Of a DNA stretch of 51,336 nucleotides, positions 4,506 to 51,336 are shown piece by piece. The DNA is taken from assembly GCA_947623995.1 (NCBI GenBank), contig CANQIN010000002.1, positions 1 to 51,336 on the forward strand, in the 5' to 3' direction. Made by a program: the position numbers and the translations under genes. How positions within the stretch are numbered: position 1 is the first letter of the stretch; every line of letters starts with the position of its first letter. The DNA comes from an uncultured Bacilli bacterium (GTDB lineage: Bacteria > Bacillota_I > Bacilli_A > RF39 > UBA660). The notes under the pieces are model-generated. The model was not told the DNA's origin and made no database searches. It saw nothing but the letters and a program-made list of their open reading frames with translations.

Positions 4506-4532
4506 AAAAAAAGCAGATAATTTTTTATCTAC
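4506..4532 (-). terminator. Intrinsic terminator of the 1534-aa surface protein gene
   Basis: Minus strand GTAGATAA-AAAA-TTATCTGC (7/8 bp) followed by T7. The stem includes the TAG stop codon. Confidence 0.6.
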
Positions 4533-11248: not shown

Positions 11249-12619
11249 CTACCGTGCAATGAACGGTGTTCCTTTTTCACCATTTCCATCTATAATTTTT
11301 GTAGAAGATTTTAGATATACAACAGGCAAAATATCACCATAATCACCTTCTCCAGCTGAGCAGCTACCGATACCAAAATCCATACTCACACAAAACACAG
11401 TATTACCATAATCTGCTGCTGGAGTAATTGTAAATGCATCATAGCCTAGCATTAACCAATCATTTGTGTTACAACTATCACTAACATATGAAACCATACT
11501 TTTTCCTAAACATATTTCTCTTACTTCTCTTCCTACAGCATATCCGTAGTCACTAGGATAAATTAAGCCTATATATCCATCCCATGTTGTTGTTCTTTCT
11601 ACTTCATCATTACAATATCTATTATTACTCTCACATTGTTCCTTACCATTATGAGTACTTCTTTCTCCCTCATACATATATTTTGCTGATATTTTGCTAC
11701 TATAATATTTTTCACCTATCGTTCCCGTATTCCATCTTACTTTAGCTATCTTTTTCTTTGCTTCTTCACTTATTCCACTACTTGTAAAATCACATGGCTT
11801 ATAACTACTGTTATTTTTATAACAATATCCATTTTCCCTATTCCAATACAAACTTCTTCCTATTTCTGGGATTCCACTATATATATCTTGAGGATTTAAT
11901 AATTTCATTATATCTGCTTGACTCCATTCATTTACTCCCTGACCATAATTTATTTCTGATTCACTAATATCCCAACTAAAATAACCTATACTTCCTGTTC
12001 TTATTATTTTTAATAAGCTTTCTTGTTGTCCGCCATTATCTAAATTAGTTATATTATTCATGACTCCTATTATTCGCCATAATATTGGATTACCATCACC
12101 ATCACTATCTCCTATATCTATATAATTATTTACATCTGCATCTGCTCCTACATATCTTAGATTTGCATCATTTGTATCATCAACCCATAAATTTGTTGTA
12201 TCTGTTTTAGCTAAATCAATAATATAATCAGCAGCATTTGGCTCATATTCTTTAAAATATAAGCTACATTTGGTTTTACTTTTACTTAAGTTCTTTACTA
12301 TTGGTCCCCATGTTTCACTATCCCATATTATACTGGCTCCATTATCACATTCACCATGGTCAAATACTAAATTTTCTTCATTACCTTTCTGAGGCATTTC
12401 ATCTAATTCTTCATCACCTTTATAAAACGCAAAATAAATATCACTGTTACCAAAATAATCTACTTTTCCCTTCATCATTGGAAACTCTGCACTTTCTGTA
12501 AAAGATGCGAATGTTTTGTATAGAATTAATGATACACTTATTAAGACTATTACACTTATAGTTATTAGTATTGTTCTTCTTCTTTTTTCATTTTTATCAA
12601 CATACTTTTCTAGCTTCAT
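11249..12619 (-). CDS. Paralog family member, class-I N-module with type-a C-module
   Basis: N-terminus MKLEKYVDKNEKRRRTILITISVIVLISVSLILYKTFASFTESAEFPMMKGKVDYF. N-module ..GECDNGASIIWDSETWGPIVKNLSKSKTKCSLYF. C-module motifs NNYIDIGDSDGDGNPILWRIIGVMNN, NGKEQCE, YCNDEVERTTTWDGYIGLIYPSDYGYA and PVVYLKS. Confidence 0.85.
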   Translation of the reverse strand: MKLEKYVDKNEKRRRTILITISVIVLISVSLILYKTFASFTESAEFPMMKGKVDYFGNSDIYFAFYKGDEELDEMPQKGNEENLVFDHGECDNGASIIWDSETWGPIVKNLSKSKTKCSLYFKEYEPNAADYIIDLAKTDTTNLWVDDTNDANLRYVGADADVNNYIDIGDSDGDGNPILWRIIGVMNNITNLDNGGQQESLLKIIRTGSIGYFSWDISESEINYGQGVNEWSQADIMKLLNPQDIYSGIPEIGRSLYWNRENGYCYKNNSSYKPCDFTSSGISEEAKKKIAKVRWNTGTIGEKYYSSKISAKYMYEGERSTHNGKEQCESNNRYCNDEVERTTTWDGYIGLIYPSDYGYAVGREVREICLGKSMVSYVSDSCNTNDWLMLGYDAFTITPAADYGNTVFCVSMDFGIGSCSAGEGDYGDILPVVYLKSSTKIIDGNGEKGTPFIAR

Positions 12620-21785: not shown

Positions 21786-23363
21786 TTATTCTATCATAAA
21801 TGGATTATCGATACTTCCATATTTCAAATCATTATTCGGATTTTCTAATATTTTAATATTTGATTTTAAATAGGCTACAGGTTTAATATTTCCAAAAGTA
21901 TCAACGCCTCCACTTGTAGCATATCCCTCAGCTGAAACAAAAAATGCAGTATGAGAATATTCTGTTAATGGAGCTGGATTAATAGTCCAAACATTAGTAT
22001 TAGAGCTAAGCCAATCATTTAAATTACAATTTTCTGTATTATAGGTATTTATACTTTTTATTAAACAATTTGTTCTTACATTTCCTCCTACCGCATAGCC
22101 ATAATCCGATGGATGTATTAAACCTATATATCCATCCCATGTTGTTTTTCTTTCTACTTCATCATTGCAATATATTCCACCTGTATTTTCACATTGTTCT
22201 TTACCATTATGATTACTTCGTTCACTTTCATACATGTATTGAGCTGTTATTTTATTTGAATAATCTATTTCACCAACTGTTCCAGTATACCATCTTACTT
22301 TTGCTATCTTACTCTTTACTTCTTCACTTAGCCCACTATTTGTAAATTCACATGGTATATTTAATTCGCTATATGCATTATAACAATATCCTTTTCCTCT
22401 TGTCCAATATAAACTTGCTCCGATTTCTGGTGTTCCACTATATACATCTTGAGGATTTAATAATTTCATTACATCAGCTTGACTCCATTCATTTACTCCC
22501 CAACCATTATTTATATTTGGTGCACTACTATCCCAGCTATAATCTCCTATATTATCTGCTCTTATTATTTTTACTAAACTTTCTTGCTTTTCAATATCAT
22601 CTAAACTTGTGATATTATTCATAACACCAATTACTCGCCATAATATTGGATTACCATCACCATCTCTATCTCCTATATCTATATAGTTATTTGGTTCTGC
22701 TCCAATATATCTTAAATTATTATCTTTGGTATTATCATATGATAAATTTGTTTCTTCGGTTTTGGCTATTTCTTCTATATAATCACTTGCTACTTGTTCA
22801 CCTATTTTTCCTTCAACCACTATTTTTGATTTTGCTATTTCATTTTCTATTCCACTTTCTTTTGTTACTTCTTCTTTTATCCATAATCTTAACTCATAGT
22901 TTACACTTTCTAATTTTCTTAATCTTCCTTCTGTTAATTGACGACTTTCTTTTGCTTCACTTATTTTTGGTATTTCATTTTCAGGATATTTACTTAATAT
23001 TTTAGGTTCTGTTTCTGTTTCTTCTTTATTTAATAATACTTTTATATTTTCACTATTTAATGTTGTTTCATTTAACATTTCTAAATTTATACTATAATCT
23101 ACATAATTTTCACATTCATTACGGATTGTAAATTTATATGGCTCTAGAATTTTTCCTTCTACATCTGTTTTTGGAAATGTATTTGTTAAACTTATGTTAT
23201 CTTCTTTATTTGTTAATTCTATATCTAAACAACTTGTACTTAAGATATTTTCATTTGTTTGTTCTTTTGTTATTACCCATAAAGCATAACTTACTCCTAT
23301 AGTTATTATTATTAACATTATTACCACTAATCCTATATATAATTTCTTTTTATTTTTGGCCAT
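21786..23363 (-). CDS. Paralog family member, class-II (TasA/camelysin-like) N-module with type-a C-module
   Basis: AAGGAGAA SD lies before the ATG at 23363 (MAKNKKKLYIGLVV..). The sequence continues SYALWVITKEQTNENILSTSCLDIELTN..FTIRNECENYVDYS. The C-module closely parallels 11249-12619 (KIAKVRWYTGT, NGKEQCE, YCNDEVERKTTWDGYIGLIHPSDYGYA). Confidence 0.85.
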   Translation of the reverse strand: MAKNKKKLYIGLVVIMLIIITIGVSYALWVITKEQTNENILSTSCLDIELTNKEDNISLTNTFPKTDVEGKILEPYKFTIRNECENYVDYSINLEMLNETTLNSENIKVLLNKEETETEPKILSKYPENEIPKISEAKESRQLTEGRLRKLESVNYELRLWIKEEVTKESGIENEIAKSKIVVEGKIGEQVASDYIEEIAKTEETNLSYDNTKDNNLRYIGAEPNNYIDIGDRDGDGNPILWRVIGVMNNITSLDDIEKQESLVKIIRADNIGDYSWDSSAPNINNGWGVNEWSQADVMKLLNPQDVYSGTPEIGASLYWTRGKGYCYNAYSELNIPCEFTNSGLSEEVKSKIAKVRWYTGTVGEIDYSNKITAQYMYESERSNHNGKEQCENTGGIYCNDEVERKTTWDGYIGLIHPSDYGYAVGGNVRTNCLIKSINTYNTENCNLNDWLSSNTNVWTINPAPLTEYSHTAFFVSAEGYATSGGVDTFGNIKPVAYLKSNIKILENPNNDLKYGSIDNPFMIE

Positions 23364-23403
23364 AACACATTCTCCTTGTATAACTATTATTTTTATTATC
23401 AAT

Positions 23404-31689: not shown

Positions 31690-33015
31690 CTATTGAACTG
31701 ATAATACAAAAGGCGAATTTATATCTCCTGTTCCATCAACAATTTTTGTAGAAGTTGTTAAATATAAAGTTGGCCAAACCATAATTTCGGAATTGACACG
31801 ATAATCACTGCTAGTTACCCAACCTTCATATTCTACATAGAATGCATGATTGGAATCATTAGAATCTAGTGATAAAGTCCATAGACAATAATAGGGACTT
31901 GGAGTTAACCAATCATTTGTATAGCAATTACCTCCATCATAATCATATAAATTTTTGACTAAACAATTATTCCTTACTTCTCCTCCTACGGCATAACCGT
32001 AATCACTTGGATAAATTAAGCCTATTCCATTATGCTTTTCTCCTACATCTGTTTCAATACTCCATTCACTTGGATATGTATTACTACTTCCTGTACTTGT
32101 TCCCCTTTCTTTTTCATAAAATTGTTTTGCTGTTATTGTCTCTGTATCCCATCCACCTATATTCCAGCTTACTTCTTTATCTATCATATTTCTTGCTGTA
32201 TCATCTAATCCTTTTGGTAAAATTGCTCCTGTATTAAAATCACACTGGCTTACTATACCACTACTGCTATTATAGCAATCTCCTATTCCACTTTCATAGT
32301 ATATTCCATTCAGCATATCTTTTAATGACGAAGTATTCCAATTATTAGTATCTGTATCCCAATAATACTGGCCAAAATCCTTTTGGCCTTTTACACCATC
32401 TTGTCTTACTATTTTTAGTCTTTGCTCTATTCCACTTTCAGTTTTTACATTTACTAAACCTATAATTCGCCAGATTTCATTATTAAAGAATACATAATTA
32501 TCTGGATCAGCTCCAGCATATCGATATTCAGTTTGATTCCATTCTTGACCAAGTTCTTCTAAATCATCATGAGTTACGACATAAAGTCCATCTCCACTTT
32601 CTACTACTGGTATTTTCATTCCGCCTAATTCTACACCTACTTGTTCTTTAAAATATAAACTACATTTAGTCTTACTTTTACTTAAATTTTTAACCATTGG
32701 TCCCCATTTTTCACTATTCCATTCGATTGTTGCTCCATTATCACATATTCCATGGTCAAATACCAAATTTTCTTCATTACCATTCTGAGGCATTTCATCT
32801 AATTGTTCATCACCTTTATAGAACGCAAAATAAATATCACTATTACCAAAATAATCTACTTTACCTTTCATCATAGGAAATTCAGCACTTTCAGTAAAAC
32901 TTGCAAAGGTTTTATATAATAGAAAAGAAACACTTATTAACACTATTACACTAATGGTTATTAGTATTGTTTTTCTTGTTTTACTATTCTTATCAACATA
33001 CTTTTCTAGCTTCAT
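31690..33015 (-). CDS. Paralog family member, class-I N-module with type-b C-module
   Basis: Same N-terminus and N-module as 25599-26945 (..GICDNGATIEWNSEKWGPMVKNLSKSKTKCSLYF). C-module motifs EYRYAGADPDNYVFFNNEIWRIIGLVNV, LKDMLNGIYYESGIGDCY and GLIYPSDYGYAVGG. Confidence 0.85.
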   Translation of the reverse strand: MKLEKYVDKNSKTRKTILITISVIVLISVSFLLYKTFASFTESAEFPMMKGKVDYFGNSDIYFAFYKGDEQLDEMPQNGNEENLVFDHGICDNGATIEWNSEKWGPMVKNLSKSKTKCSLYFKEQVGVELGGMKIPVVESGDGLYVVTHDDLEELGQEWNQTEYRYAGADPDNYVFFNNEIWRIIGLVNVKTESGIEQRLKIVRQDGVKGQKDFGQYYWDTDTNNWNTSSLKDMLNGIYYESGIGDCYNSSSGIVSQCDFNTGAILPKGLDDTARNMIDKEVSWNIGGWDTETITAKQFYEKERGTSTGSSNTYPSEWSIETDVGEKHNGIGLIYPSDYGYAVGGEVRNNCLVKNLYDYDGGNCYTNDWLTPSPYYCLWTLSLDSNDSNHAFYVEYEGWVTSSDYRVNSEIMVWPTLYLTTSTKIVDGTGDINSPFVLSVQ

Positions 33016-33262: not shown

Positions 33263-34597
33263 TTATGATTCTAAAATAAATGGATTATCAATTGTTCCAT
33301 ATTCTTTTTCAGGTTTAGAATTCGGAAGTATTTTAACATTATTTTTTAAATATAGTGTTGGCCAAACGCCTTTACTGTATAGACCAGAATTACGCACATA
33401 TCCATACAAACCAATATAAAATGCACCACGTGAGTATGAAGAATTAGGTGTTAAAGACCATGAATCGCCATCAATAGGTTTTAACCAGTCAGTTCCAGCA
33501 CATTCACTTTGATAATTTATAATATTATTTTCCCAGTTATATAATTCTTTTGTAAAGCATGCTTCCCTTCCTAAATTACCTCCATTAGTCGCATAACCAT
33601 AGTCACTTGGATAAATTAATCCTATTCCATTATGTTTTCCTAATGGATCATTTTTATTACTCCATTCAATTGGATAATCGCTATTTCCAGTTACACTTCC
33701 CCGTTCTTTCTCATAAAAAACATTTACTAAAACATCATTTTCTGGAAAAACTCCTCCAATATTCCAAATTACTTCTTTATCTATCATTTTTCTTGCAGTT
33801 TCATCTAAGCCTTTTGGCAAATTACTGTTTCCTGTGAAATCACATTCATTTTGAGTATCTTGATTTTCATTAATTACTGGAAAACATTCACCTATCGTAC
33901 TTTCATAATATATGCCATTTAACATATCTTTTAATGTTGAAGTATTCCAATTGTTTACATATCTATCCCAAACATAGTTTCCAAAATTTTTTTGAGCATC
34001 AATACCATCGGTTCTCACAATTTTAATTCTTTGTTCTATACCTCTTGCAGTTGCAACATTTACTAAGCCTATTATTCGCCATGTCTCATTATTAAATTTG
34101 ACATAATTATTTGGATTAGAACCTGCATATCGATATTCTATTTTATTCCATTCTTTATTTATTCCATTTACTTCATGACTTACTTTATACAGTCCATCTC
34201 CACTTTCAATTGTTGAAACATTTTTTATAAAATCTATTCCTGATGATTGCCTAAAATATAAAGCACACTTAGTTTTACTTTTACTTAAATTCTTTACTAA
34301 TGGGGCCCATTCTACTTCATCCCAAAGAACATATGCACCATTGTCACATTTTCCATAATCAAAAACTAAATCTTCATTATTATCTTTATCTGGCATTTCA
34401 TCTATTTGTTCTTCTCCTTTATAAAATGCAAAATAATCTACTTTTCCCTTCATCATTGGAAATTCTTCACTTTCGGTAAAAGATGCAAATGTGTTATATA
34501 ACAAAAAAGAAATACTTATTAAGACTATTATGCTTATAGTTATTAGTATTGTTTTTCTTCTTTTTTTATCTTTATTATTATTCTTTTCTAGCTTCAT
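33263..34597 (-). CDS. Paralog family member, class-I N-module (7-codon deletion variant) with type-b C-module
   Basis: ..FASFTESEEFPMMKGKVDYFAFYKGEEQ.. lacks GNSDIYF. The rest includes GKCDNGAYVLWDEVEWAPLVKNLSKSKTKCALYF, EYRYAGSNPNNYVKFNNETWRIIGLVNV and GLIYPSDYGYA. Confidence 0.85.
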   Translation of the reverse strand: MKLEKNNNKDKKRRKTILITISIIVLISISFLLYNTFASFTESEEFPMMKGKVDYFAFYKGEEQIDEMPDKDNNEDLVFDYGKCDNGAYVLWDEVEWAPLVKNLSKSKTKCALYFRQSSGIDFIKNVSTIESGDGLYKVSHEVNGINKEWNKIEYRYAGSNPNNYVKFNNETWRIIGLVNVATARGIEQRIKIVRTDGIDAQKNFGNYVWDRYVNNWNTSTLKDMLNGIYYESTIGECFPVINENQDTQNECDFTGNSNLPKGLDETARKMIDKEVIWNIGGVFPENDVLVNVFYEKERGSVTGNSDYPIEWSNKNDPLGKHNGIGLIYPSDYGYATNGGNLGREACFTKELYNWENNIINYQSECAGTDWLKPIDGDSWSLTPNSSYSRGAFYIGLYGYVRNSGLYSKGVWPTLYLKNNVKILPNSKPEKEYGTIDNPFILES

Positions 34598-34735: not shown

Positions 34736-36328
34736 GGCTCTAAATAATTTAGTGGGGAGCAAAATTTCATTAAAGCATTATAAAATAAGGGTTTGTCCCT
34801 TATTTTTTGCATTCAAAAAAATTTTATGTTTTTTGAATGCTAATAACACTTATTTTTCTATTTTTTTGATTTCTTTCTTTTTTGGTAATTCCACTTATTT
34901 TTCCATTCATAATATACATAATTCTTAATCTAAAAAAATGAAAATTTTTATATCCAAATCCTATTCTTTTTATGACTTTTATTTTATTATTGATGCCTTC
35001 TGTATAACCATTTGAAAACCTTTTATCTATAAATGAATTAACTATATAGGGTAACCAATTTTCTATTGTTTTTGCTGCTTCTTTCATTTCTTCTATTCCA
35101 TAATTTTGTACTGTACTTATCCATTCTTTTAATTCACTTTCTGCATATTCATAAGTTGTTGTATGTAATACATCAAAAAATAATTCTTTTAATAAATATC
35201 CCTTTTGTAATTCTTCATTTATTGCTAGTATCTCTTCTCTTAAATCATACTTTAATATATCTACCATATGTCCATTTTTATATCTTTTGGTATATGTATA
35301 CCAGTCGACTTCATTGCTATATTTTCTGAGTAATGTTACATTTTTTTTATTTTTTAACATTCTGTATTCTTTTGTATTATATCCATAATTTTTTTGTAAT
35401 TTGATTCTTATTTTATCTAGCGCATCCATTACATATCGTGTATAATGAAATCTATCTACTACATATTTAGCTTTGGGAAACATTATTTGCTGTACGAGTA
35501 GATATGGTTCGTACATATCACTTATGACGAACTCCACTGAATGTCTATTTTCAGTATATGTAAAATACTGAATCAGATATTCTTTTTTTCTATTTGGTAA
35601 TATATCTAATACTTTTCTATGAATTGGATCATTGATAATAAATGCATATTTTCCTTCTTTCGTGTCTGCTTTAAATTCGTCAAATGATATAACTCTTGGT
35701 AAATTCTTTATATGCTCTGGATATTTACTCATTGCATTCTCTAATATATTTCTTATCGTTCCTGCTGATACATTATTACTTTCTGCTATATATTTTAAAG
35801 ATAAATTGTAATTCATTAAATCTTTTAATATTTTTTGTTCTAATTTAGTGGATATTGATTTTCCTTTTTCATTTAATGATAATTCTTCTGTAAATCTTTT
35901 ATTACATTTATGACATATAAACCTTTTCTTTACTATATTTATTGTAGTTTCTTGCTCCATTATTTTTAAATATTTAATTTCTATGGGTTTTAATTTATCA
36001 TGTATGCTTTTTGTATATTCTCCACATTTTGGGCATTTATCTTTTTTCTTTTTACTTTCTACATATATTATTTTTTTCACTTTTTTATTTTCCTCTCTTT
36101 CTTCTATTTTTATTATTTTGTATTCTTCTAACTTTAACAATTTTTCAATTTCATTCATTCTTTTTCACCTCCAATTCCTTATTAAAAAATTGCTCATTTA
36201 TTATACAATAAAAAAAGAAGATAACATTTCTATTATCTCCCCACTAGACTGTCTAGCTTTCTTGATAAAACTCCCCACTAGATTTTCTTAACTGGAATTT
36301 TTATCTCCCCACTAAATTATCTAGAACC
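34736..36328 (-). mobile_element. ISL3-family insertion sequence (1593 bp) with an 8-bp target duplication
   Basis: The inverted repeats are GGCTCTAAATAATTTAGTGGGGAG (34736-34759) and the complement of 36305-36328 (GGTTCTAGATAATTTAGTGGGGAG), matching 22/24. The target duplication AAAAAATC is at 34728-34735 and 36329-36336. An uninterrupted homologous site is present at 21737-21760. Three CTCCCCACTA subterminal repeats sit in 34-bp phase (36237, 36271, 36305). Confidence 0.9.
34824..36158 (-). CDS. ISL3-family transposase
   Basis: N-terminal zinc-finger pairs CPKCG..CHKC, a DDE region including the DRFH motif, 444 aa. Confidence 0.9.
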   Translation of the reverse strand: MNEIEKLLKLEEYKIIKIEEREENKKVKKIIYVESKKKKDKCPKCGEYTKSIHDKLKPIEIKYLKIMEQETTINIVKKRFICHKCNKRFTEELSLNEKGKSISTKLEQKILKDLMNYNLSLKYIAESNNVSAGTIRNILENAMSKYPEHIKNLPRVISFDEFKADTKEGKYAFIINDPIHRKVLDILPNRKKEYLIQYFTYTENRHSVEFVISDMYEPYLLVQQIMFPKAKYVVDRFHYTRYVMDALDKIRIKLQKNYGYNTKEYRMLKNKKNVTLLRKYSNEVDWYTYTKRYKNGHMVDILKYDLREEILAINEELQKGYLLKELFFDVLHTTTYEYAESELKEWISTVQNYGIEEMKEAAKTIENWLPYIVNSFIDKRFSNGYTEGINNKIKVIKRIGFGYKNFHFFRLRIMYIMNGKISGITKKERNQKNRKISVISIQKT

Positions 36329-36371: not shown

Positions 36372-37955
36372 TTATCCTAAAATAAAAGGATTATCTATAC
36401 TTCCATATTCTTTTTCAGGATTGGGATTTTCTAATATTTTAACAGTTGATTTTAAATAAGCTACTGGTTTAACATCATAACCATTTAAAGCTCCATGCGT
36501 AATTATCCGTGTTTCATATAGATGATATACATCTAGTGCCGAGTTGTTTAATGGTGTAAGGGTCCAATTATATTCAGAAGTTATTCGTAACCAATTATTG
36601 TTATTGCAATCCTCATCATATGCATCCAAATTTTTTTGAAGACAGTTATTTCTTGCTTCTCCTCCTACCGCATAACCAAAATCTGAGGGATACAGCAAAG
36701 CAATATATCCATCCCATGCTGTAGTTCTTTCTACTTCATCATTGCAAAACGTTCCATATTCACATTGCTTACTTTTATTTTTACTTCTCTCACCATTATA
36801 CATGTAATCAGCAGTCTTATTTCCATTAGGTGTACCAAGGTTCCATTTAACTTTTGATATAAGAGTTTTTGCCTTATCACTCAACCCACTATTAGTAAAA
36901 TCACATTTTTTATTTTCATTATTTATCCAAAAAAAACATTCTCCATCTTTTTGATTCCAAAATAAACTATTATTAGCTTTAATTTCTTCACCAACATTAT
37001 TTGTTTCCATATTATCGTCATATCCAGGATTTAATAATTTCATTAAGTCTGCTTGGCTCCATTCATTTATTCCATATCCATAGTTTATTGTTTGTATGCT
37101 ACTATCCCAGCTATAGATTCCAATACTATCTGCTCTTATTATTTTTACTAAACTTTCTTGCTTTTCAATATCATCTAAACTTGTGATGTTATTCATAACA
37201 CCGATTACTCGCCATAATATTGGTTGTCCTTCACCATCTCTATCTCCTATATCTATATAGTTATTTGGCTCTGCTCCAATATATCTTAAATTATTATCTT
37301 TGGTATTATCATATGCTAAATTTGTTTCTTCGGTTTTGGCTATTTCTTCTATATAATCACTTGCTACTTGTTCACCTATTTTTCCTTCAACCACTATTTT
37401 TGATTTTGCTATTTCATTTTCTATTCCACTTTCTTTTGTTACTTCTTCTTTTATCCATAATCTTAACTCATAGTTTACACTTTCTAATTTTCTTAATCTT
37501 CCTTCTGTTAATTGACGACTTTCTTTTGCTTCACTTATTTTTGGTATTTCATTTTCAGGATATTTACTTAATATTTTAGGTTCTGTTTCTGTTTCTTCTT
37601 TATTTAATAATACTTTTATATTTTCACTATTTAATGTTGTTTCATTTAACATTTCTAAATTTATACTATAATCTACATAATTTTCACATTCATTACGGAT
37701 TGTAAATTTATATGGCTCTAGAATTTTTCCTTCTACATCTGTTTTTGGAAATGTATTTGTTAAACTTATGTTATCTTCTTTATTTGTTAATTCTATATCT
37801 AAACAACTTGTACTTAAGATATTTTCATTTGTTTGTTCTTTTGTTATTACCCACAAAGCATAACTTACTCCTATGGTTATTAATAGTAATACTATTAATA
37901 CAATAGTTATTATTTTAATTTTATTTTTTGGTTTTTCATAACTTTCTAAATTCAC
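36372..37955 (-). CDS. Paralog family member, class-II N-module with type-a-derived C-module
   Basis: Residues ~30-300 are near-identical to 21786-23363 (SYALWVITKEQTNEN... through ..LVKIIRAD), after which the sequences diverge. A GTG start at 37955 or 37964 follows a class-I type GAGTGAT leader. Confidence 0.8.
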   Translation of the reverse strand: MNLESYEKPKNKIKIITIVLIVLLLITIGVSYALWVITKEQTNENILSTSCLDIELTNKEDNISLTNTFPKTDVEGKILEPYKFTIRNECENYVDYSINLEMLNETTLNSENIKVLLNKEETETEPKILSKYPENEIPKISEAKESRQLTEGRLRKLESVNYELRLWIKEEVTKESGIENEIAKSKIVVEGKIGEQVASDYIEEIAKTEETNLAYDNTKDNNLRYIGAEPNNYIDIGDRDGEGQPILWRVIGVMNNITSLDDIEKQESLVKIIRADSIGIYSWDSSIQTINYGYGINEWSQADLMKLLNPGYDDNMETNNVGEEIKANNSLFWNQKDGECFFWINNENKKCDFTNSGLSDKAKTLISKVKWNLGTPNGNKTADYMYNGERSKNKSKQCEYGTFCNDEVERTTAWDGYIALLYPSDFGYAVGGEARNNCLQKNLDAYDEDCNNNNWLRITSEYNWTLTPLNNSALDVYHLYETRIITHGALNGYDVKPVAYLKSTVKILENPNPEKEYGSIDNPFILG

Positions 37956-37981
37956 TATTATCACTCAATTCTATAATTTAT

Positions 37982-42866: not shown

Positions 42867-44426
42867 TTAAGATAAAGTAAAGGGATTATCTGTTGTTCCG
42901 TTACCATTAGTTATTTTAACATTTGATTTTAAATATAAAACTGGCTTCACTGATAACTGCGATATTGGGGGAGTAACATAACTTACACATCCATCATAAT
43001 TTACAAACATAGTCCCATCGGTCAATCTAGGATTAATTGTCCATTGTGTTATTCCCTTTTCGTATAACCAATCATTTTCAACACATTCCAAAGAAATTTC
43101 TTCAGACCAAGATCTTAAATTCCTATTTAAGCAAGTATCTCTTTTTACATTACTTCCTCCGCTAGTAGCAAAACCATAATCGCTAACATACATTAAACCT
43201 ATTTTTCCAATCCAATTCATGTTATTTTTATGTTCATTTTCATAAAAATAATTAGGAATAAATCCTCCACCACCAAGTGAACTATTTGTATATATAACAT
43301 TACTTATATATGCTTTAGCATCTAAATTTAAACCAGTATCTTTAAAATCGCAAACTATCGTTTCGCCATTTGTTGGACATTCGCCTTTAATTTTTTCCCA
43401 GTATGCTCCATTATTTAAAATTTGTTGTAAATCAGAAAAATTCCAATCATTTCTGGAATTATTATCCCAACTAAAATTACCTATTGAATCCTTTCTAATA
43501 ATTTTCATATGGCTTCCAACTGTTTGGGATTTACTTTCATCTTCACTTACTTCGGTTACATTATTCATAACTCCGATGATTTGCCATAATATTGGATTCC
43601 CTTCACTATCTCTATCACCTATATCTATATAATTATTTGGATTAGACCCAATATATCTTAAATTGTTATCATCGGTTCCTAATTCTTCTCCTAAACTTTC
43701 TTTTCCATCATATGCTAAGTTTATTGTATCTAAATTTGCATTTTCTTTCATACAGGTTACTGCATCTTTTCCTTCTGCTCCACACTTTGCTACTGCACTT
43801 CCATATACTTCTCCTATATCATTACTTTCTGTTGCTGCATTTATTACATTGATACTTGCTTCAAATGTTTGTCCTTCTACTTCATTTCCAGCAATGTCAT
43901 CTATCCATAAATATAAATTGTAGGTTACTTCTTCTCCATTATTTACTACTCCATCAACTTTTGTTCCTCCACTTAATACTCCTGTGTCTAATATATATGA
44001 TGTCCCTAAATTCTCTACCATTAAATTTTCTAAATCAGTATTTATTCTACTTAATTTACTTCCAACATTTGGTTTTTCTTCACTACTTTTATATAAAGCA
44101 TATTTTATTTTACTTGCATCTAAGGTATTTGTACTTAATGTATTTAATGTTAAGACATAATTATTATTAATAGTACAGGTATTTGTTATGGTAAATGTAT
44201 AAGGATTTGTACTTAATCCTATACTATCATTTACTGGATACGTATTATCTAATTTTATACTTTCACTTTGCTCACTAAATCCTATACTAAAACATCCTAC
44301 ATCCATCTCATTTTCATTTGTTTGTTCTTCGGTTATTATCCACAAAGCATATGATTGGGTTATATATAAACATCCCACTAACATTAATCCTATTATTAAT
44401 AATGATAATTTATATCTTACTTTCAT
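42867..44426 (-). CDS. Paralog family member, class-II (group 2) N-module with a hybrid type-a/c C-module
   Basis: MKVRYKLSLLIIGLMLVGCLYITQSYALWIITEEQTNENEMDVGCFSIGF... The first ~275 aa are near-identical to the 46740, 48574 and 50386 copies. C-module motifs NNYIDIGDRDSEGNPILWQIIGVMNN, GLMYVSDYGFA, PVLYLKS and DNPFTLS. Confidence 0.85.
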   Translation of the reverse strand: MKVRYKLSLLIIGLMLVGCLYITQSYALWIITEEQTNENEMDVGCFSIGFSEQSESIKLDNTYPVNDSIGLSTNPYTFTITNTCTINNNYVLTLNTLSTNTLDASKIKYALYKSSEEKPNVGSKLSRINTDLENLMVENLGTSYILDTGVLSGGTKVDGVVNNGEEVTYNLYLWIDDIAGNEVEGQTFEASINVINAATESNDIGEVYGSAVAKCGAEGKDAVTCMKENANLDTINLAYDGKESLGEELGTDDNNLRYIGSNPNNYIDIGDRDSEGNPILWQIIGVMNNVTEVSEDESKSQTVGSHMKIIRKDSIGNFSWDNNSRNDWNFSDLQQILNNGAYWEKIKGECPTNGETIVCDFKDTGLNLDAKAYISNVIYTNSSLGGGGFIPNYFYENEHKNNMNWIGKIGLMYVSDYGFATSGGSNVKRDTCLNRNLRSWSEEISLECVENDWLYEKGITQWTINPRLTDGTMFVNYDGCVSYVTPPISQLSVKPVLYLKSNVKITNGNGTTDNPFTLS

Positions 44427-44687
44427 TTTTACCAATCCCTATTCTTAAGTTATTTAAAGTATATCAAATTTCTAACGAAAAGTCTTTATATTTTATAAAG
44501 TTATTGGTAAAATCTTGTTATTATAATTTTTTTAAAATAGTAAAAAAGCATAAAAACTATAATATTTAGTTATTTCTTTAAAACTAAATTTATAAAAAGA
44601 AATTTAAAAAGATTGTACATAATATAAATAAGAAATAGATTAAACAATTGACATAATAAACTTTTTTTCGTTTTTTAAATATTTATA

Positions 44688-44879
44688 AAGACAAAATAAA
44701 TATCACTATTACTAAAATAATCTACTTTGCCATTCATCATTGGAAATGAAACATTCTCAGAAAAGGAAGCAAAGGTTTTATAAAGTAAAAAAGAAACTTA
44801 TTAACACAATTACACTTATGCTTATTAATATTATTTTTCTTCTTTTACTTTCTTTATCAACATACTTTTCTAGTTTCAT
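44688..44879 (-). pseudogene. 5' remnant of a class-I paralog (frameshifted, truncated after ~60 codons)
   Basis: It translates from 44879 as MKLEKYVDKESKRRKIILISISVIVLISFFFTL*. A shifted frame continues ..FPMMNGKVDYFSNSDIYFVF, then homology ends near 44688. Confidence 0.7.
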
Positions 44880-44901
44880 TATAATCATCCATTCTACTAT
44901 G

Positions 44902-44932
44902 ATTATAGCTCTTGACCTATCCTCCATGTCAA
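44902..44932 (-). promoter_or_regulatory. Switch-promoter homolog with a degenerated tract (TTGACA-TGGAGGATAGG..-TATAAT, 19-nt spacer)
   Basis: -35 at 44932-44927 and -10 at 44907-44902. The position of the G10 is occupied by GGAGGATAGG. The upstream flank matches P5. Confidence 0.5.
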
Positions 44933-45112
44933 GTTTGAAAATATTATTTTAAACCACTTGCTATATTTGTAATTTATGCAATATACTTTAAAATATCATG
45001 TAATCTAATTTTAATTTACTTACTGATACTTTTTAATAACACTTAATTTATATGTCTACTTTCAAAAAGGGCAAACTCAAAGTTAAGATAATAGTTTTGT
45101 ATTTATTTACCC

Positions 45113-45967
45113 TTAAGTATTTTTCTGTTTTTTTATTAATTTAGAATGAACAACAATTCTACCACCATAATTATTTTGGCATGTTGATAAAGTAAGAATT
45201 TTATCATTTTCATTTACTAAAGTATCTATGGGAGCCACATTACGTTTTTTCATTTCATTAAGCCAATTTTTCTTTTTTTCAATACTTGCAAAATTTGGCG
45301 TAATATAATAAGATTCTTTAGGAATTGTATAAATAGAAAAAATTTGAAAAAGCATATTTTCTTTTAAAGTTGATAAGTATATTACATAATTATCTTTATT
45401 ATTTTGCCATTCTGATGTTAATACAAGATTTAATGATCCAAAAAGTGTTGCATCTAATCTAGAATGACCATATATAACATTATTATCTACTAAATCTATT
45501 AAGTTACCTCGAAAATCTAAAAATATCCAACCAGCTTTATTTTCACTTTTATCAAATGAATGATTCAAATAAAACTCATTATCAGATCCTTGAACAACAG
45601 GATAATTAACAGCAGTATTATTAATTTTTATATAACCAACTGTATTATTATTTTTTAATAATAATTTTGAAAAATTAACTGTTAAAAATGGGAAATTAAT
45701 ATAATAGAAATAATTATCATTTAAATTATTTGGAGGATTAACTAATTGTTGATTTTCATTATTATTTTTAATATCTATAATTTCATTAATTTCATTATTT
45801 ATTTGTCGAATTTTGGAATTATTAATTTGCCAATTTAATATAGTATATATTGAGAAGATAAAAATAAGAAGACACAAAATAAAAATTATATTTTTTAATA
45901 ACTTCTTTTGAGCTTTAACATTATTTTGTTCTTTAAAATAATCTTCTATAGAAATATATTTTTTCAC
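45113..45967 (-). CDS. srtB: Class B sortase
   Basis: N-terminal TM anchor, VIYGHSR and the catalytic TLSTC motif, then a conserved Arg region (GGRIVVHSKL). The start is a GTG behind a GAAGGTGA SD. Confidence 0.8.
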   Translation of the reverse strand: MKKYISIEDYFKEQNNVKAQKKLLKNIIFILCLLIFIFSIYTILNWQINNSKIRQINNEINEIIDIKNNNENQQLVNPPNNLNDNYFYYINFPFLTVNFSKLLLKNNNTVGYIKINNTAVNYPVVQGSDNEFYLNHSFDKSENKAGWIFLDFRGNLIDLVDNNVIYGHSRLDATLFGSLNLVLTSEWQNNKDNYVIYLSTLKENMLFQIFSIYTIPKESYYITPNFASIEKKKNWLNEMKKRNVAPIDTLVNENDKILTLSTCQNNYGGRIVVHSKLIKKQKNT

Positions 45968-46023
45968 TTTTATTCACCTTCTAAAATTGACTAAATAATT
46001 TCTATGAGAAAAGGAGTAAATTT

Positions 46024-46674
46024 ATGAAAAAATTTTTTTTAATCTTTACATTCATAATACTTTTTAGCACCCAAACGGTATTTGCTGCAAGTAATTATGG
46101 AGAAGTAAAAGATATTACAAAACAGGCAGGTGATTCTCTTACTAAAGGAGAAGGAACAATTGAGACAAAGGGCGACACAACAACAATTAGATATGAAGCT
46201 TCAACATTTAAAATGTTGGAAAAAGATGAAAATGCTGCAGATGGAGAAAGACCTGGTCCAGCAGCTTGGATAGGTTTTAAAATTACTGAACCTACTGATG
46301 GAAGTAATTCAAAATTTAAAGTTACAACTCCAGATAATAAAACTATTGAAATAAGTTCTTCATCATATACCGATTATGTAGGTATTACTCCTACAAATTT
46401 AAAAAATGCTCTTTTAAAAGGAACAGTGCTTACTTATAAATATAGTTTTGACTGGGATGAAAATGGCGAGAATGATCAATTTGTTATAATTGAAATTGAT
46501 CCTGAAGAAATTACATTAATTGATACAAGTGGAGAGACGGTTTGGTCACCACAGATTGCTAAAGATTTATTAGAAGCTCAAAATCCAAAAACATCAGATA
46601 TTAACTTATTATTAGTTATTGGTCTTATAATAATTAGTGGATTAGGAATAACTTATTATTTTAAAAAAGCTTAA
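46024..46674 (+). CDS. Secreted protein with an NPKTSD sortase-B type sorting signal
   Basis: Signal peptide ..FSTQTVFA. The C-terminus is AQNPKTSD, then the hydrophobic stretch INLLLVIGLIIISGLGITYYF, then KKA. It is transcribed divergently from srtB. Confidence 0.8.
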   Translation: MKKFFLIFTFIILFSTQTVFAASNYGEVKDITKQAGDSLTKGEGTIETKGDTTTIRYEASTFKMLEKDENAADGERPGPAAWIGFKITEPTDGSNSKFKVTTPDNKTIEISSSSYTDYVGITPTNLKNALLKGTVLTYKYSFDWDENGENDQFVIIEIDPEEITLIDTSGETVWSPQIAKDLLEAQNPKTSDINLLLVIGLIIISGLGITYYFKKA

Positions 46675-46739
46675 AATAAACTTTTAAATAAATGAAAAAG
46701 GAAAACCAGGTGATTTTCCTTTTTTATTATATTTAAATT

Positions 46740-48365
46740 TTAAGATTCTAAGATAAATGGATTATCTATTGTTCCATTTCCATTTATTATTTTAACATTT
46801 GATTTTAAATATAAGGTAGGCCAAACTCCAAAAGCATAATCTATACTTCCTGTATGGCTTACATATCCAGAAGAAAAAATGTTGTATGATCTTCCAGAAT
46901 GAGAAGAATTTGAGGTCAAAAGCCACTGATAATCTTTATTTGGTTTTAGCCAATCATTTAAGGAACAACTTTCAGTATAATAGTCATATATATTCAAGTT
47001 TAAACAAGTTTTTCTGACATTACCACCAACGGCATAGCCGTAATCTGAAGGATATATTAGACCAATACCATTGTGATAATTAGAATCATTTTCTTTAGTC
47101 CATTCGTTTGGATATTCTTGATTATAAACAGCTGTTCCACGTTCATTAATGTATATATTTTTGGAATTTATCCCAACACTATTATAACCTCCCAAACTCC
47201 AGATTATTTCATTATCTATCATTTCTCTAAAGTTTAAATCTATGCCTTTTGGCAAATCTGTTTCAGATCCGCTAAAATTACATGTGTTTTTATTTCCAAT
47301 TTCATTTTGAGCAGTATAACAATCTCCAATTCCGCTTTCATAATATATACCATTTAACATATTTTTTAAACTCGATTTTACCCAATTATTTTCAATAACT
47401 TCTTTTCCATAATCCCAACTGTAATTTCCAAAATCTTTTTGACCAGCTATTCCATCTTGTCTTATTATTTTTAAATGACTACCAGTTATTTCACTTCCAT
47501 CTTCTTGTTCGCTTCTTAAATTGTTCATGACTCCAATAATCCGCCATTTTTCTCCATTAAATGATACATAATTATTTGGATTAGACCCAATATATCTTAA
47601 ATTATTATCATCGGTTCCTAATTCTTCTCCTAAACTTTCTTTTCCATCATAGGCTAAATTTATTGTATCTAAATTTGCATTTTCTTTCATACATGTTACA
47701 GCATCTTTTCCTTCTGCTCCACACTTTGCTACTGCACTTCCATATACTTCTCCTATATCATTACTTTCTGTTGCTGCATTTATTACATTGATACTTGCTT
47801 CAAATGTTTGTCCTTCTACTTCATTTCCAGCAATGTCATCTATCCATAAATATAAATTGTAGGTTACTTCTTCTCCATTATTTACTACTCCATCAACTTT
47901 TGTTCCTCCACTTAATACTCCTGTGTCTAATATATATGATGTCCCTAAATTCTCTACCATTAAATTTTCTAAATCAGTATTTATTCTACTTAATTTACTT
48001 CCAACATTTGGTTTTTCTTCACTACTTTTATATAAAGCATATTTTATTTTACTTGCATCTAAGGTATTTGTACTTAATGTATTTAATGTTAAGACATAAT
48101 TATTATTAATAGTACAGGTATTTGTTATGGTAAATGTATAAGGATTTGTACTTAATCCTATACTATCATTTACTGGATACGTATTATCTAATTTTATACT
48201 TTCACTTTGCTCACTAAATCCTATACTAAAACATCCTACATCCATCTCATTTTCATTTGTTTGTTCTTCGGTTATTATCCACAAAGCATATGATTGGGTT
48301 ATATATAAACATCCCACTAACATTAATCCAATTATTAATAATGATAATTTATATCTTACTTTCAT
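46740..48365 (-). CDS. Paralog family member, class-II (group 2) N-module with type-b C-module
   Basis: ATG at 48365 (MKVRYKL..). The N-terminal ~275 aa are shared with the other group-2 copies. C-module motifs NNYVSFNGEKWRIIGVMNN, LKNMLNGIYYESGIGDCY, GLIYPSDYGYAVGG, WPTLYLKS and DNPFILES. Confidence 0.85.
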   Translation of the reverse strand: MKVRYKLSLLIIGLMLVGCLYITQSYALWIITEEQTNENEMDVGCFSIGFSEQSESIKLDNTYPVNDSIGLSTNPYTFTITNTCTINNNYVLTLNTLSTNTLDASKIKYALYKSSEEKPNVGSKLSRINTDLENLMVENLGTSYILDTGVLSGGTKVDGVVNNGEEVTYNLYLWIDDIAGNEVEGQTFEASINVINAATESNDIGEVYGSAVAKCGAEGKDAVTCMKENANLDTINLAYDGKESLGEELGTDDNNLRYIGSNPNNYVSFNGEKWRIIGVMNNLRSEQEDGSEITGSHLKIIRQDGIAGQKDFGNYSWDYGKEVIENNWVKSSLKNMLNGIYYESGIGDCYTAQNEIGNKNTCNFSGSETDLPKGIDLNFREMIDNEIIWSLGGYNSVGINSKNIYINERGTAVYNQEYPNEWTKENDSNYHNGIGLIYPSDYGYAVGGNVRKTCLNLNIYDYYTESCSLNDWLKPNKDYQWLLTSNSSHSGRSYNIFSSGYVSHTGSIDYAFGVWPTLYLKSNVKIINGNGTIDNPFILES

Positions 48366-48395
48366 ATTACCAATCCCTATTCTTAAGTTATTTAA

Positions 48396-48424
48396 AGTAT
48401 ACAATAATTTAACATTTTTAGCAA
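48396..48424 (-). promoter_or_regulatory. Tract-free promoter of 46740-48365
   Basis: TTGCTA (48424-48419), 17 nt, TATACT (48401-48396). Confidence 0.55.
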
Positions 48425-48552
48425 ATATATTAGTAGTAATTTTAGTAACTCCCTATAAAAATTTTATGTTTAAATCAAAGTAGAAAAAACTAGAAAAACA
48501 AATACAGAAATTAGTAATTTAATTTAGCTATAATTAATTCTCTTTTAGCATG

Positions 48553-48578
48553 AAAAAAAACTTAACAATTAAGTTAAG
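48553..48578 (-). terminator. AT-rich intrinsic terminator overlapping the stop codon of 48574-50178
   Basis: Minus strand CTTAAC-TTAATT-GTTAAG followed by T8. Confidence 0.5.
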
Positions 48579-50178
48579 CTTCTAAGATAAATGGATTATC
48601 CTCTGTTCCATTTCCATTTATTATTTTTATATTATTAATAAGATAAACTACAGGTGCTACTGAACCAGAATCTATATGAGATGTAGCATAACCCATTACA
48701 CCATTATCTCCTGGAGCCAATATCCTATTTACTTTATTTTCATTTGGAATAGATGCTGTTATAGTCCAATACCAACTACTTGATGGTTTTAACCAATCAT
48801 CATAACCGCATTTTTCAGTATAGTACAAACTCATATAATTATTTATGCATAAATTTCTCATACTTTTACCAACGGCATAACCATAATCTGATGGATACAT
48901 TAAACCAATTCCATTGTAAAATTCATTGTCTATCTCTTTAGACCATTCACTTTTATTTTGATTATTATTTCCTGTTTGAATTCCTCGTTCCTTTTTATAA
49001 ATTTCAGCTGGTACAACATCAGTTGTGTCGACGCCTCCAACATTCCATACTAAATTTGTATCTATCATGCTTCTTGAATTACTGTTTATACCTTTTACTA
49101 GCCCACTTTCTTGTGTAAAATCGCAAGTTGTAGGTTCACTAATACTTGTGGTATAACATTCACCGCTTGTACTATTATAATATATTCCATTTAACATATC
49201 TTTTAATGCGGATATTGTCCAATCATTTGATGATTTATTATCCCAATAGTATTTTTCTAAATTTTCTTGGCCAGAAATTCCATTAGTTCTAATTATTTTC
49301 AAACGTTCTACTTTTTCTCCATTTTCATTTTTTACTTTCATGACTCCAATAATCCGCCATTTTTCTCCATTAAATAATACATAATTATTTGGATTTGCAC
49401 CAATATATCTTAAATTATTATCATCGGTTCCTAATTCTTCTCCTAAACTTTCTTTTCCATCATATGCTAGGTTTATTGTATCTAAATTTGCATTTTCTTT
49501 CATACAGGTTACGGCATCTTTTCCTTCTGCTCCACACTTTGCTACTGCATTTCCATATACTTCTCCTATATCATTACTTTCTGTTGCTGCATTTATTACA
49601 TTAATACTTGCTTCAAATGTTTGGCCTTCTACTTCATTTCCAGCAATGTCATCTATCCATAAATATAAATTGTAGGTTACTTCTTCTCCATTATTTACTA
49701 CTCCATCAACTTTTGTTCCTCCACTTAATACTCCTGTGTCTAATATATATGATGTCCCTAAATTCTCTACCATTAAATTTTCTAAATCAGTATTTATTCT
49801 ACTTAATTTACTTCCAACATTTGGTTTTTCTTCACTACTTTTATATAAAGCATATTTTATTTTACTTGCATCTAAGGTATTTGTACTTAATGTATTTAAT
49901 GTTAAGACATAATTATTATTAATAGTACAGGTATTTGTTATGGTAAATGTATAAGGATTTGTACTTAATCCTATACTATCATTTACTGGATACGTATTAT
50001 CTAATTTTATACTTTCACTTTGCTCACTAAATCCTATACTAAAACATCCTACATCCATCTCATTTTCATTTGTTTGTTCTTCGGTTATTATCCACAAAGC
50101 ATATGATTGGGTTATATATAAACATCCCACTAACATTAATCCAATTATTAATAATGATAATTTATATCTTACTTTCAT
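48574..50178 (-). CDS. Paralog family member, class-II (group 2) N-module with a type-b variant C-module
   Basis: Same N-terminal half. C-module motifs NNYVLFNGEKWRIIGVMKV, LKDMLNGIYYNSTSGECY, GLMYPSDYGYAVG, PVVYL and DNPFILEA. Confidence 0.85.
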   Translation of the reverse strand: MKVRYKLSLLIIGLMLVGCLYITQSYALWIITEEQTNENEMDVGCFSIGFSEQSESIKLDNTYPVNDSIGLSTNPYTFTITNTCTINNNYVLTLNTLSTNTLDASKIKYALYKSSEEKPNVGSKLSRINTDLENLMVENLGTSYILDTGVLSGGTKVDGVVNNGEEVTYNLYLWIDDIAGNEVEGQTFEASINVINAATESNDIGEVYGNAVAKCGAEGKDAVTCMKENANLDTINLAYDGKESLGEELGTDDNNLRYIGANPNNYVLFNGEKWRIIGVMKVKNENGEKVERLKIIRTNGISGQENLEKYYWDNKSSNDWTISALKDMLNGIYYNSTSGECYTTSISEPTTCDFTQESGLVKGINSNSRSMIDTNLVWNVGGVDTTDVVPAEIYKKERGIQTGNNNQNKSEWSKEIDNEFYNGIGLMYPSDYGYAVGKSMRNLCINNYMSLYYTEKCGYDDWLKPSSSWYWTITASIPNENKVNRILAPGDNGVMGYATSHIDSGSVAPVVYLINNIKIINGNGTEDNPFILEA

Positions 50179-50208
50179 ATTACCAATCCCTATTCTTAAG
50201 TTATTTAA

Positions 50209-50237
50209 AGTATACAATAATTTAACATTTTTAGCAA
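50209..50237 (-). promoter_or_regulatory. Tract-free promoter of 48574-50178
   Basis: TTGCTA (50237-50232), 17 nt, TATACT (50214-50209). It is identical to 48396-48424. Confidence 0.55.
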
Positions 50238-50365
50238 ATATATTAGTAGTAATTTTAGTAACTCCCTATAAAAATTTTATGTTTAAATCAAAGTAGAAAA
50301 AACTAGAAAAACAAATACAGAAATTAGTAATTTAATTTAGCTATAATTAATTCTCTTTTAGCATG

Positions 50366-50390
50366 AAAAAAACTTAACAATTAAGTTAAG
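50366..50390 (-). terminator. AT-rich intrinsic terminator overlapping the stop codon of the 50386 copy
   Basis: Minus strand CTTAAC-TTAATT-GTTAAG followed by T7. Confidence 0.5.
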
Positions 50391-51336
50391 CTTCTAAGAT
50401 AAATGGATTATCCTCTGTTCCATTTCCATTTATTATTTTAACATTTGATTTTAAATATAAAACTGGTTTAATTGAATATGCTGCAAGGTCTGAATCAATT
50501 GTTGAAACTGTTCCATCATTTTTTATTCGCCAAACTACATAATTATAATATGTTTGCGGTGTCATAGTAAATTGCTGATATTCTAGTGGTGCAAGATAAT
50601 TGCTATCTTTACAATCTGTATTATTCAATTTATCAGTATCTGTTTTTAAGCAAATACTTCTAGAATAATTATTAGTACCACTAGCAGCATAACCATAATC
50701 TGATGGATATATTAAGCCTATTTTACCAGTCCATTTTGATTCATAAGTATTGTCGTTACCAGTTAATCCTCCACGTTCATAATCATAGCATTGTTTAGTT
50801 GAAGTGGAATAATCTGAATAACCCCCAAGATTCCATGAAATATTAGCTATTAAATTTTTAGCTTCATCTTTTAAGGTATCGTTCCAGTATGTTCCACTAT
50901 TTAGTATATCTTTAAGAGTTGATTTTGAATAGTCATTAGTCTGATTTTCATCAAAAACATAATCACCTATTGTTTTAGCTGTTATTATTTTTAAATGGCT
51001 TCCTATGCTTTGTGTTTCACTTCCATCTTCACTTACTTCGGTTATATTATTCATAACCCCAATAATTCGCCATAGTTCATTATTAAATGATATATAATTA
51101 TTTGGATTAGACCCAATATATCTTAAATTATTATCATCGGTTCCTAATTCTTCTCCTAAGACTTCTTTTCCATCATATGCTAGGTTTATTGTATCTAAAT
51201 TTGCATTTTCTTTCATACATGTTACGGCATCTTTTCCTTCTGCTCCACATTTTGCTACAGCACTTCCATATACTTCTCCTATATCATTACTTTCTGTTGC
51301 TGCATTTATTACATTGATACTTGCTTCAAATGTTTG
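50386..51336 (-). CDS. Paralog family member, class-II (group 2), 5' end outside the window, type-c C-module
   Basis: The reading frame is open to the window edge (..QTFEASINVINAATESNDIGEVYGSAVAKCGAEGKDAVTCMKENANL..); the track's M at 51216 is internal. C-module motifs NNYISFNNELWRIIGVMNNITEVSEDGSE, GLIYPSDYGYA, PVLYLKS and DNPFILEA. Confidence 0.8.
   Translation of the reverse strand, partial: QTFEASINVINAATESNDIGEVYGSAVAKCGAEGKDAVTCMKENANLDTINLAYDGKEVLGEELGTDDNNLRYIGSNPNNYISFNNELWRIIGVMNNITEVSEDGSETQSIGSHLKIITAKTIGDYVFDENQTNDYSKSTLKDILNSGTYWNDTLKDEAKNLIANISWNLGGYSDYSTSTKQCYDYERGGLTGNDNTYESKWTGKIGLIYPSDYGYAASGTNNYSRSICLKTDTDKLNNTDCKDSNYLAPLEYQQFTMTPQTYYNYVVWRIKNDGTVSTIDSDLAAYSIKPVLYLKSNVKIINGNGTEDNPFILEA

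Follow-up and report, generated by a model that had tools for sequence, protein, structure and literature searches.

How can genes of a single genome keep their 5′ halves nearly identical while their 3′ halves are as different as those of ancient paralogues? The question is raised by a stretch of DNA from an uncultured Bacilli bacterium (GTDB lineage Bacillota_I; Bacilli_A; RF39; UBA660), comprising positions 1 to 51,336 of contig CANQIN010000002.1 in assembly GCA_947623995.1. This stretch, hereafter the window, is an entire metagenome contig. One paralogous family accounts for 12 genes and 34% of the length of the window, and its members carry N-termini of two kinds, class I and class II. Four class-II genes, g1 to g4, lie at the far end of the window, which terminates inside the repeated block of g4. 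The front half of each gene (the N module) is encoded by this block and is followed by a C module, or head, of its own. We estimate at roughly 0.8 the probability that gene conversion of the RecA type keeps the block uniform, together with unequal crossing-over or tandem duplication in the case of a unit common to g2 and g3.

Comparison of the window with itself by BLASTN aligned the block of g1 (43626–44463) to the corresponding regions of g2 (47565–48401; 98.9% identity, 8 mismatches in 838 nt) and g3 (49378–50214; 98.4%). The block is ~0.84 kb long and its 3′ end falls in the codons for the motif NNLRYIG-NPNNY, where identity measured in 30-nt windows drops from 0.97–1.00 to 0.20 in a single step (at 43626, 47565 and 49378). 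Maximum chi-square breakpoints were located at nt 798–801 of the coding sequence (CDS) for the pairs involving g1, at 810 for g2/g4 and g3/g4, and at 858 for g2/g3. To the left of the breakpoint there are 5–17 mismatches per ~800 nt (0.6–2%) and to the right 272–318 per ~700 nt (40–44%); in the permutation test, none of 1000 replicates reached the observed value. The sharp boundary described in the earlier note is thus borne out, since the decay is stepwise by both measures and not gradual. The open reading frames (ORFs) and coordinates that it listed are likewise correct, as are the array periods of 1834 and 1812 nt and the threefold occurrence of a 104-aa antisense ORF with one substitution, which is a passive by-product of the repeated block. 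When all pairs are considered, the tract ends depend on the pair (798, 810, 858 and 949), and this variation, from 798 to 949, favours homologous recombination over a site-specific mechanism.

At its other end the block extends beyond the coding sequence. In g1 and g4 the 5′ limit is position −37, exactly at the −10 box (TATACT), whereas the −35 region and the sequence further upstream are individual for each gene outside the unit common to g2 and g3. The latter unit comprises the final ~75 nt of the preceding gene and a 208-nt spacer, then the 5′ block, and it reaches ~50 nt into the head. The block had been thought to cover the leader, which is accurate from the −10 box onward but not for the whole leader of g1 and g4; a near-identical spacer, which had been ascribed to the array, is common to g2 and g3 alone. 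For g4, the 243 nt of the block inside the window (51093–51336) are only 93–95% identical to g1–g3, but the complete gene in a sister assembly (L006, 8288–9793) carries the whole block at ~99–100%.

Such identity could in principle stem from one recent event that duplicated the 5′ half, or from purifying selection acting on an N module that is essential, with no recurrent conversion. The N module is indeed conserved across species at the protein level (76–96%), and g2 and g3 clearly represent one recent tandem unit. Within the species, N modules share ~100% and C modules 39–63% protein identity. However, the homogenisation is not confined to the protein: synonymous divergence (dS) of the block among paralogues is 0–0.09 (0–13 differences over 159 synonymous sites), compared with 0.6–1.2 for the C modules, and the 5′ untranslated region (UTR) from −37 onward is also common to the block copies. 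Selection on the protein cannot explain the identity of the block, because synonymous and untranslated positions are homogenised too. Comparison with other species leads in the same direction. The orthologues g4 and x8 differ by a dS of 0.32 over the block, so that there paralogues are closer to each other than orthologues are; the head shows the opposite, with a dS of 0.42 for this pair against 0.7–1.2 among paralogues. Orthologous C modules are 74–83% identical across species (g4/P0008, 82%; g3/P0009, 81%; g4/P0013, 74%), and the N modules of the same pairs 96%, 76% and 85%, respectively. The heads linked to the block are older than the species split, because head orthologues exist in other species. 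The two paralogues sampled from the sister species, x5 and x8, share a homogenised block of their own (dS 0.097) with the same boundary near +800. Since paralogue dS is lower than orthologue dS, and since the block of the sister species is homogenised as well, homogenisation took place after the species split in both lineages, independently. Even if a single recent block had spread once in each lineage, this would itself amount to gene conversion or replacement. We therefore give an explanation without recurrent conversion scarcely any credence. The proposal of the earlier note that gene conversion homogenises the 5′ half and leaves the 3′ half diverse is supported by dS, by the protein identities and by the block of the sister species; unequal crossing-over, which it also invoked, is plausible for the g2/g3 tandem unit. 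In the wider family, N- and C-module similarities are discordant in both directions.

The array is not the only place where the block is found. A fifth copy, in L002 at the distant smpB–tilS locus, shows no difference from g2 between ~−40 and ~+945, and a sixth protein, P0006, possesses the same N module as g1–g4. The array locus itself was recovered in three further assemblies of the same species, and all four agree in gene order and C modules. One 45-kb contig carries, in order, adh_short, g4, g3, g2, a gene for a 216-aa protein, a sortase B gene, g1 and a thioredoxin-reductase-like gene. The syntenic site in the sister species contains only the g4 orthologue, P0008, and the array consequently differs between species. 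A second class-II pair (21786–23402 and 36372–37964), whose members are separated by 13 kb containing housekeeping genes, has been homogenised in the same manner independently. Its ~750-nt block is 100% identical (~22576–23326 and ~37150–37900) and lies wholly inside the CDS, from ~codon 25 to ~codon 275; on either side of it, in the 5′ end and in the C module, the two genes have diverged.

Several observations weigh against recurrent conversion as the full explanation. The first concerns relatives represented by metagenome-assembled genomes (MAGs) from rabbit gut, in which the N blocks of a single genome share only ~89% identity; the degree of homogenisation therefore varies across the clade. 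The others stem from the nature of the data, since all DNA considered here consists of short-read, SPAdes-style metagenome contigs. In three of the four assemblies a contig breaks within the block: the window at 51336, in the g4 block; L001 at the equivalent of window position 44336, in the g1 block; and L005, which starts in g2. Between the window and ERZ27249368 there are 0 differences in ~15 kb of unique DNA and all 47 of 47 are located in blocks; for ERZ27249363 the figure is 41 of 41. At +156, +258, +297 and +423 the alleles are uniform within an assembly and differ between assemblies, and the '100%' block identity may be somewhat inflated by the assembler. Small variant patches also sit in different copies in different assemblies. 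Such block-confined strain differences could be due to very recent conversion or, equally, to bubble-popping or mis-phasing by the assembler where a repeat exceeds the insert size; micro-variation within the block is unreliable in short-read contigs.

Could the whole pattern, then, be an artefact, with the block a collapsed consensus of a repeat, or with the array or the N–C joins chimeric? The contig ends, the confinement of the differences to the blocks and the four assembly-uniform sites are what such an artefact would have to be built on. Against it, the block–head junctions are local and robust: only a few tens of bases separate the unique sequence of each C module from the block, which means that at least five distinct junctions are physically real. 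The 45-kb contig spans all four genes in the order on which the four assemblies agree, and the same pattern, with a species-specific block, recurs in the sister species and in proteins from other samples. An artefact could touch only the fine-scale phasing of single-nucleotide polymorphisms and the gene order, and as an account of the pattern we judge it highly unlikely. The family is evidently a main cause of MAG fragmentation in this clade, and variation in blocks of this kind is unreadable from short-read assemblies.

In two related rabbit-gut MAGs, at L011 (~3001–3600) and L012 (~156–760), the class-II N module stops after ~200 codons, at a stop codon followed by unrelated sequence that is common to both loci and 85% identical between them. 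These could be N-module-only genes or the result of an insertion.

Another rival reading is programmed antigenic or adhesive variation, in which C-module cassettes would be recombined into one or a few expression sites, as in pilE/pilS, vlsE and MgPar. The earlier note entertained a similar reading when it referred to cassettes, to expression sites and to the swapping of C modules between them. As history, swapping is supported. Directly upstream of the g1 promoter there is a decayed class-I 5′ fragment which, judging from its sequence, looks like the relic of a class-I front end that was replaced by the class-II block. C-module types are common to class-I and class-II genes, at 53–64% identity (56% between g2 and 33263–34597; 61% between P0006 and 11249–12619), and in some relatives a class-II stalk is joined to a linker typical of class I. 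Past shuffling of N and C modules is thus evident, and C modules are flanked by joints found throughout the family, NNLRYIG..PNNY on the 5′ side and YLKS.VKI..G.G..NPF plus the terminator on the 3′ side. As a switching system, in contrast, the reading is not supported. All copies are full-length ORFs that have the −10 box, ribosome-binding site and ATG start codon in common (g1–g3 in the window, g4 in L006 and the dispersed copy in L002), and silent, promoterless partial cassettes were not found at the locus. Homogenisation has affected the constant half and left the variable one untouched. The C modules are identical across the four independent assemblies, which share the same gene order and show no difference outside the blocks over 15 kb, and no chimeras or rearrangements were seen among them. 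The locus is devoid of inverted repeats, simple repeats or a recombinase, and programmed variation of this kind appears most improbable. Phase variation and an invertible promoter were rejected as well: neither the promoters nor the 5′ CDS contain tandem repeats, and flanking inverted repeats are absent.

A further idea is recombinational 'head-swapping' in gut commensal Bacilli, whereby lectin-like heads would move as units between stalks, promoters and loci by way of the two joints, with frequent unequal exchange as a consequence of the long identical front halves. If this were true, a clonal population would constantly yield cells with differing numbers and combinations of heads, and antigenic variation would have a Gram-positive counterpart at the level of domains, one that has so far been invisible in short-read assemblies. 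We consider it a speculative proposal and rather unlikely to be correct.

Returning to gene conversion as the preferred explanation, we envisage that conversion between dispersed and neighbouring copies homogenises the block from the −10 element through the linker, and that the g2/g3 unit probably originated by unequal crossing-over or tandem duplication. Conversion tracts would stop where homology collapses, just past the motif conserved throughout the family; beyond this boundary the ancient heads share only ~55–60% DNA identity. Selection would probably remove those convertants in which a distinct head had been overwritten. The outcome would be one promoter, anchor and stalk serving many different putative ligand-binding heads, all of them probably expressed under the same control. 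Gene conversion that keeps one module uniform is a mechanism of a known kind, and the array represents a clean natural case of segment-limited concerted evolution that includes the promoter.

Features of the class-II array and its immediate surroundings (window coordinates).
Feature	Position	Strand	Basis or remark
g1, class-II gene, 519 aa, own C-module type	42867..44426	-	ORF; same protein P0007 in three assemblies
g2, class-II gene, 541 aa	46740..48365	-	ORF; AlphaFold 2 (AF2) model, predicted local distance difference test (pLDDT) 85.9
g3, class-II gene, 534 aa	48574..50178	-	ORF; protein P0004 in three assemblies
g4, class-II gene, cut by contig end	50386..51336	-	501 aa when complete, in sister assembly L006 (8288-9793)
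g1 shared block, -10 box and 5′ UTR to codon ~267	43626..44463	-	BLASTN; breakpoint at nt 798 of CDS
g2/g3 tandem repeat unit	47314..48633	-	93.4% overall to 49151-50445; 100% from spacer to ~+550
Putative promoter-like site TTGCTA-17-TATACT, upstream of g2	48396..48424	-	Consensus scan and alignment
Putative promoter-like site with the g2 sequence, upstream of g3	50209..50237	-	Consensus scan
Bidirectional terminator-like hairpin and T-run between convergent g2 and 216-aa gene	46686..46734	-	-14 kcal/mol
Terminator-like AT-rich hairpin over g3 stop codon, then T-run	48549..48582	-	-10.8 kcal/mol
Decayed class-I 5′ fragment: promoter and ~68 frameshifted codons (MKLEKYVDKESKRRK...FASFSENVSFPMMNGKVDYF)	44682..44958	-	81% to 5′ end of class-I gene 31690-33015
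Class B sortase gene between g1 and g2	45113..45967	-	Pfam Sortase, E 1.1e-11
216-aa secreted protein, NPKTS then hydrophobic tail at its end	46024..46674	+	Translation

In the promoter-like site upstream of g2 the −10 box lies within the shared block and the −35 box beyond it. The hairpin over the g3 stop codon fails the G+C-pair requirement of the terminator scan; an identical copy of it follows g4 at ~50361–50394. The sortase and the divergently oriented gene for the 216-aa protein are embedded in the array, and neither is present at the syntenic site of the sister species (L034). Against the srtB model TIGR03064 the sortase scored 148.8 bits (E 1.5e-43), slightly below the cut-off of 153.75 bits. 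The 216-aa protein, with its NPKTS motif, is a putative substrate of sortase B.

The window has a G+C content of ~25%, and nearly all of its genes are on the minus strand. Among genome collections, the closest relatives that were found are 'uncultured Bacilli' MAGs from rabbit gut, 'Mycoplasma sp. CAG:776/CAG:472' and 'Tenericutes' MAGs, while some protein homologues bear the label Candidatus Ventrenecus; in the best representative in the genome collections the N module is only 83% identical. Class-I proteins of the family begin with MKLEKY...FASFTESAEFPMMKGKVDYF, and class-II proteins are characterised by ...SYALW(I/V)ITxEQTNEN. The motifs NNLRYIG..PNNY, WRIIG, YPSDYGYA and YLKS.VKI...NPF are common to the C-terminal parts of both. 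Literature searches did not retrieve a description of the class-I/II family, and among its more than 1,500 database relatives almost none is named. The family is uncharacterised and very abundant, and its hosts are uncultured Mycoplasma-like gut Bacilli.

Elsewhere in the window (9262–37964), family members occur singly, scattered among core genes and not in one island; these core genes include tuf, fusA, rpsG, rpsL, murA and those for a two-component system and an ABC transporter. Between two family members there is a gene for an ISL3-family transposase (34824–36158, minus strand; Zn_ribbon_ISL3 and DDE_Tnp_ISL3 according to the listing for L004). A 572-aa protein (19904–21622, minus strand) combines a class-I-like front (…YFNNKY) with a different C-terminal domain for which there is no Pfam match, which suggests that front modules are also combined with heads of other kinds. 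Another putative large surface protein, of 1534 aa (4529–9133, minus strand), is secreted and possesses many internal repeats of ~90 aa and a C-terminal membrane anchor.

What kind of protein is it, then, whose front half is kept constant? Members of the family have a short basic N-terminus and one hydrophobic helix that ends in an invariant (S/T)YA(L/Y)W motif (Y26, A27 and W29 are invariant or nearly so); from its sequence, this helix would act as a signal anchor or a signal peptide. It is followed by a beta-sandwich 'stalk' (~residues 45–200), a cysteine-containing two-helix linker and a C-terminal 'head' of ~285 aa that resembles DUF6273, a domain of C-type-lectin-like fold. In the AlphaFold model of g2 these parts correspond to a helix (residues 3–34), a beta-sandwich (48–199), helices (204–228) and a compact domain (256–541). 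When PDB structures were searched with this model using Foldseek, the top match was 9qa6, the IgA peptidase of Thomasclavelia ramosa (E 3.8e-5, probability 1.0; 332 alignment columns, not mapped onto 9qa6 residues). Residues 31–322 of that peptidase constitute a DUF6273 domain (PMC12402451), and DUF6273 domains, which adopt a C-type-lectin-like fold, are diversified binding domains in phage receptor-binding proteins. The g2 model is thus similar in fold to a solved DUF6273 domain.

Sequence-based searches were far less informative. Full-length family proteins of the window had no match in Pfam and NCBIfam scans, and no protein of the window matched the Pfam profile for DUF6273 (PF19789) at E ≤ 0.01 or reached its gathering threshold. 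Counting against a DUF6273-like head, the same profile matched only 5 of 62 homologues, and weakly (best E 0.015), albeit a precomputed PF19789 match exists for the homologue P0048. Searches of PDB sequences with a single protein and with a profile returned chance-level matches only (E ≥ 0.1), to archaeal pilins via the hydrophobic helix, and the model of the N module matched only generic beta-sandwich or carbohydrate-binding-module folds (E > 0.006). The family probably consists of membrane-anchored surface proteins with ligand-binding heads. This would suggest that commensals with such small genomes commit substantial resources to a repertoire of lectin-like heads displayed on one type of stalk, and the repertoire points to host or glycan binding as one key aspect of their biology.

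Other assignments were considered and set aside. The (S/T)YA(L/Y)W motif recalls SipW/TasA, but the N-terminal 70 residues had no relevant NCBIfam match at E up to 10, and a TasA-like fold is not indicated by the generic matches of the N-module model. LVGC at residues 16–19 (e.g. 48309–48320, minus strand) resembles a lipobox, but the cysteine is not conserved in distant members, and a lipoprotein reading was not retained. Diversification of the head by a diversity-generating retroelement (DGR) was likewise rejected: reading through the ORFs of at least 120 aa, with no domain search, revealed no reverse transcriptase, and self-BLAST of the window detected no pair of template and variable repeats. 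Heads differ from one another along the entire module, and their diversity derives from old paralogues, not from DGR mutagenesis.

How does the array compare with systems already known? By structure, the nearest are those built on DUF6273 (PF19789), namely the N-terminal domain of the T. ramosa IgA protease and the 'tentaclins', DGR targets of phages. The proteins described here differ in that their Pfam match is below threshold and that they have no protease domain, and neither a reverse transcriptase nor a template repeat was seen. The silent-cassette systems, i.e. pilE/pilS of Neisseria, vlsE of Borrelia and MgPar of Mycoplasma genitalium, rely on a single expressed gene whose variable part is converted from many promoterless partial donors. 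They resemble the array in the recombination between repeated segments of surface genes with conserved flanks; in the array, however, all copies are complete and the constant part is converted.

A closer resemblance in layout is offered by mycoplasmas, small-genome, low-G+C, host-associated relatives of Bacilli. Their clustered families vsp (M. bovis), vlp (M. hyorhinis) and vsa (M. pulmonis) combine a highly conserved 5′ region, comprising the promoter or leader and the signal sequence, with divergent, surface-exposed C-terminal parts. The conserved 5′ part in these families is short (the leader and ~25–30 codons), the variable parts are mostly tandem repeats, and switching relies on poly-A tracts or site-specific inversion. 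In the array, by contrast, the conserved part is 0.84 kb long and includes a folded domain, the variable part is globular and lectin-like, no switch element was found, and the lipobox-like LVGC is a property of the class-II subfamily, not of the family as a whole.

With respect to the recombination process, the bab genes of Helicobacter pylori (babA, babB and babC) and related Hop adhesins provide a further parallel, since they too occupy separate loci, with end segments that are nearly identical and regions for ligand binding that diverge. Between the bab loci, gene conversion takes place by homologous recombination within the genome (PMC4552749). Their products are beta-barrel outer-membrane proteins of a Gram-negative bacterium, unrelated to the class-I/II family in sequence and fold. 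Both the 5′ and the 3′ ends are common to the bab genes, for which isolates with chimeras and with CT-repeat phase variation are on record. In the present case neither chimeras nor phase-variation repeats were seen, sharing is limited to the 5′ half with its −10 box, and the copies number at least five, of which four are arrayed. Judged by analogy, gene-conversion-prone adhesin paralogues such as H. pylori bab, together with the vsp and vlp families of mycoplasmas, appear to be the closest analogues of the class-II array.

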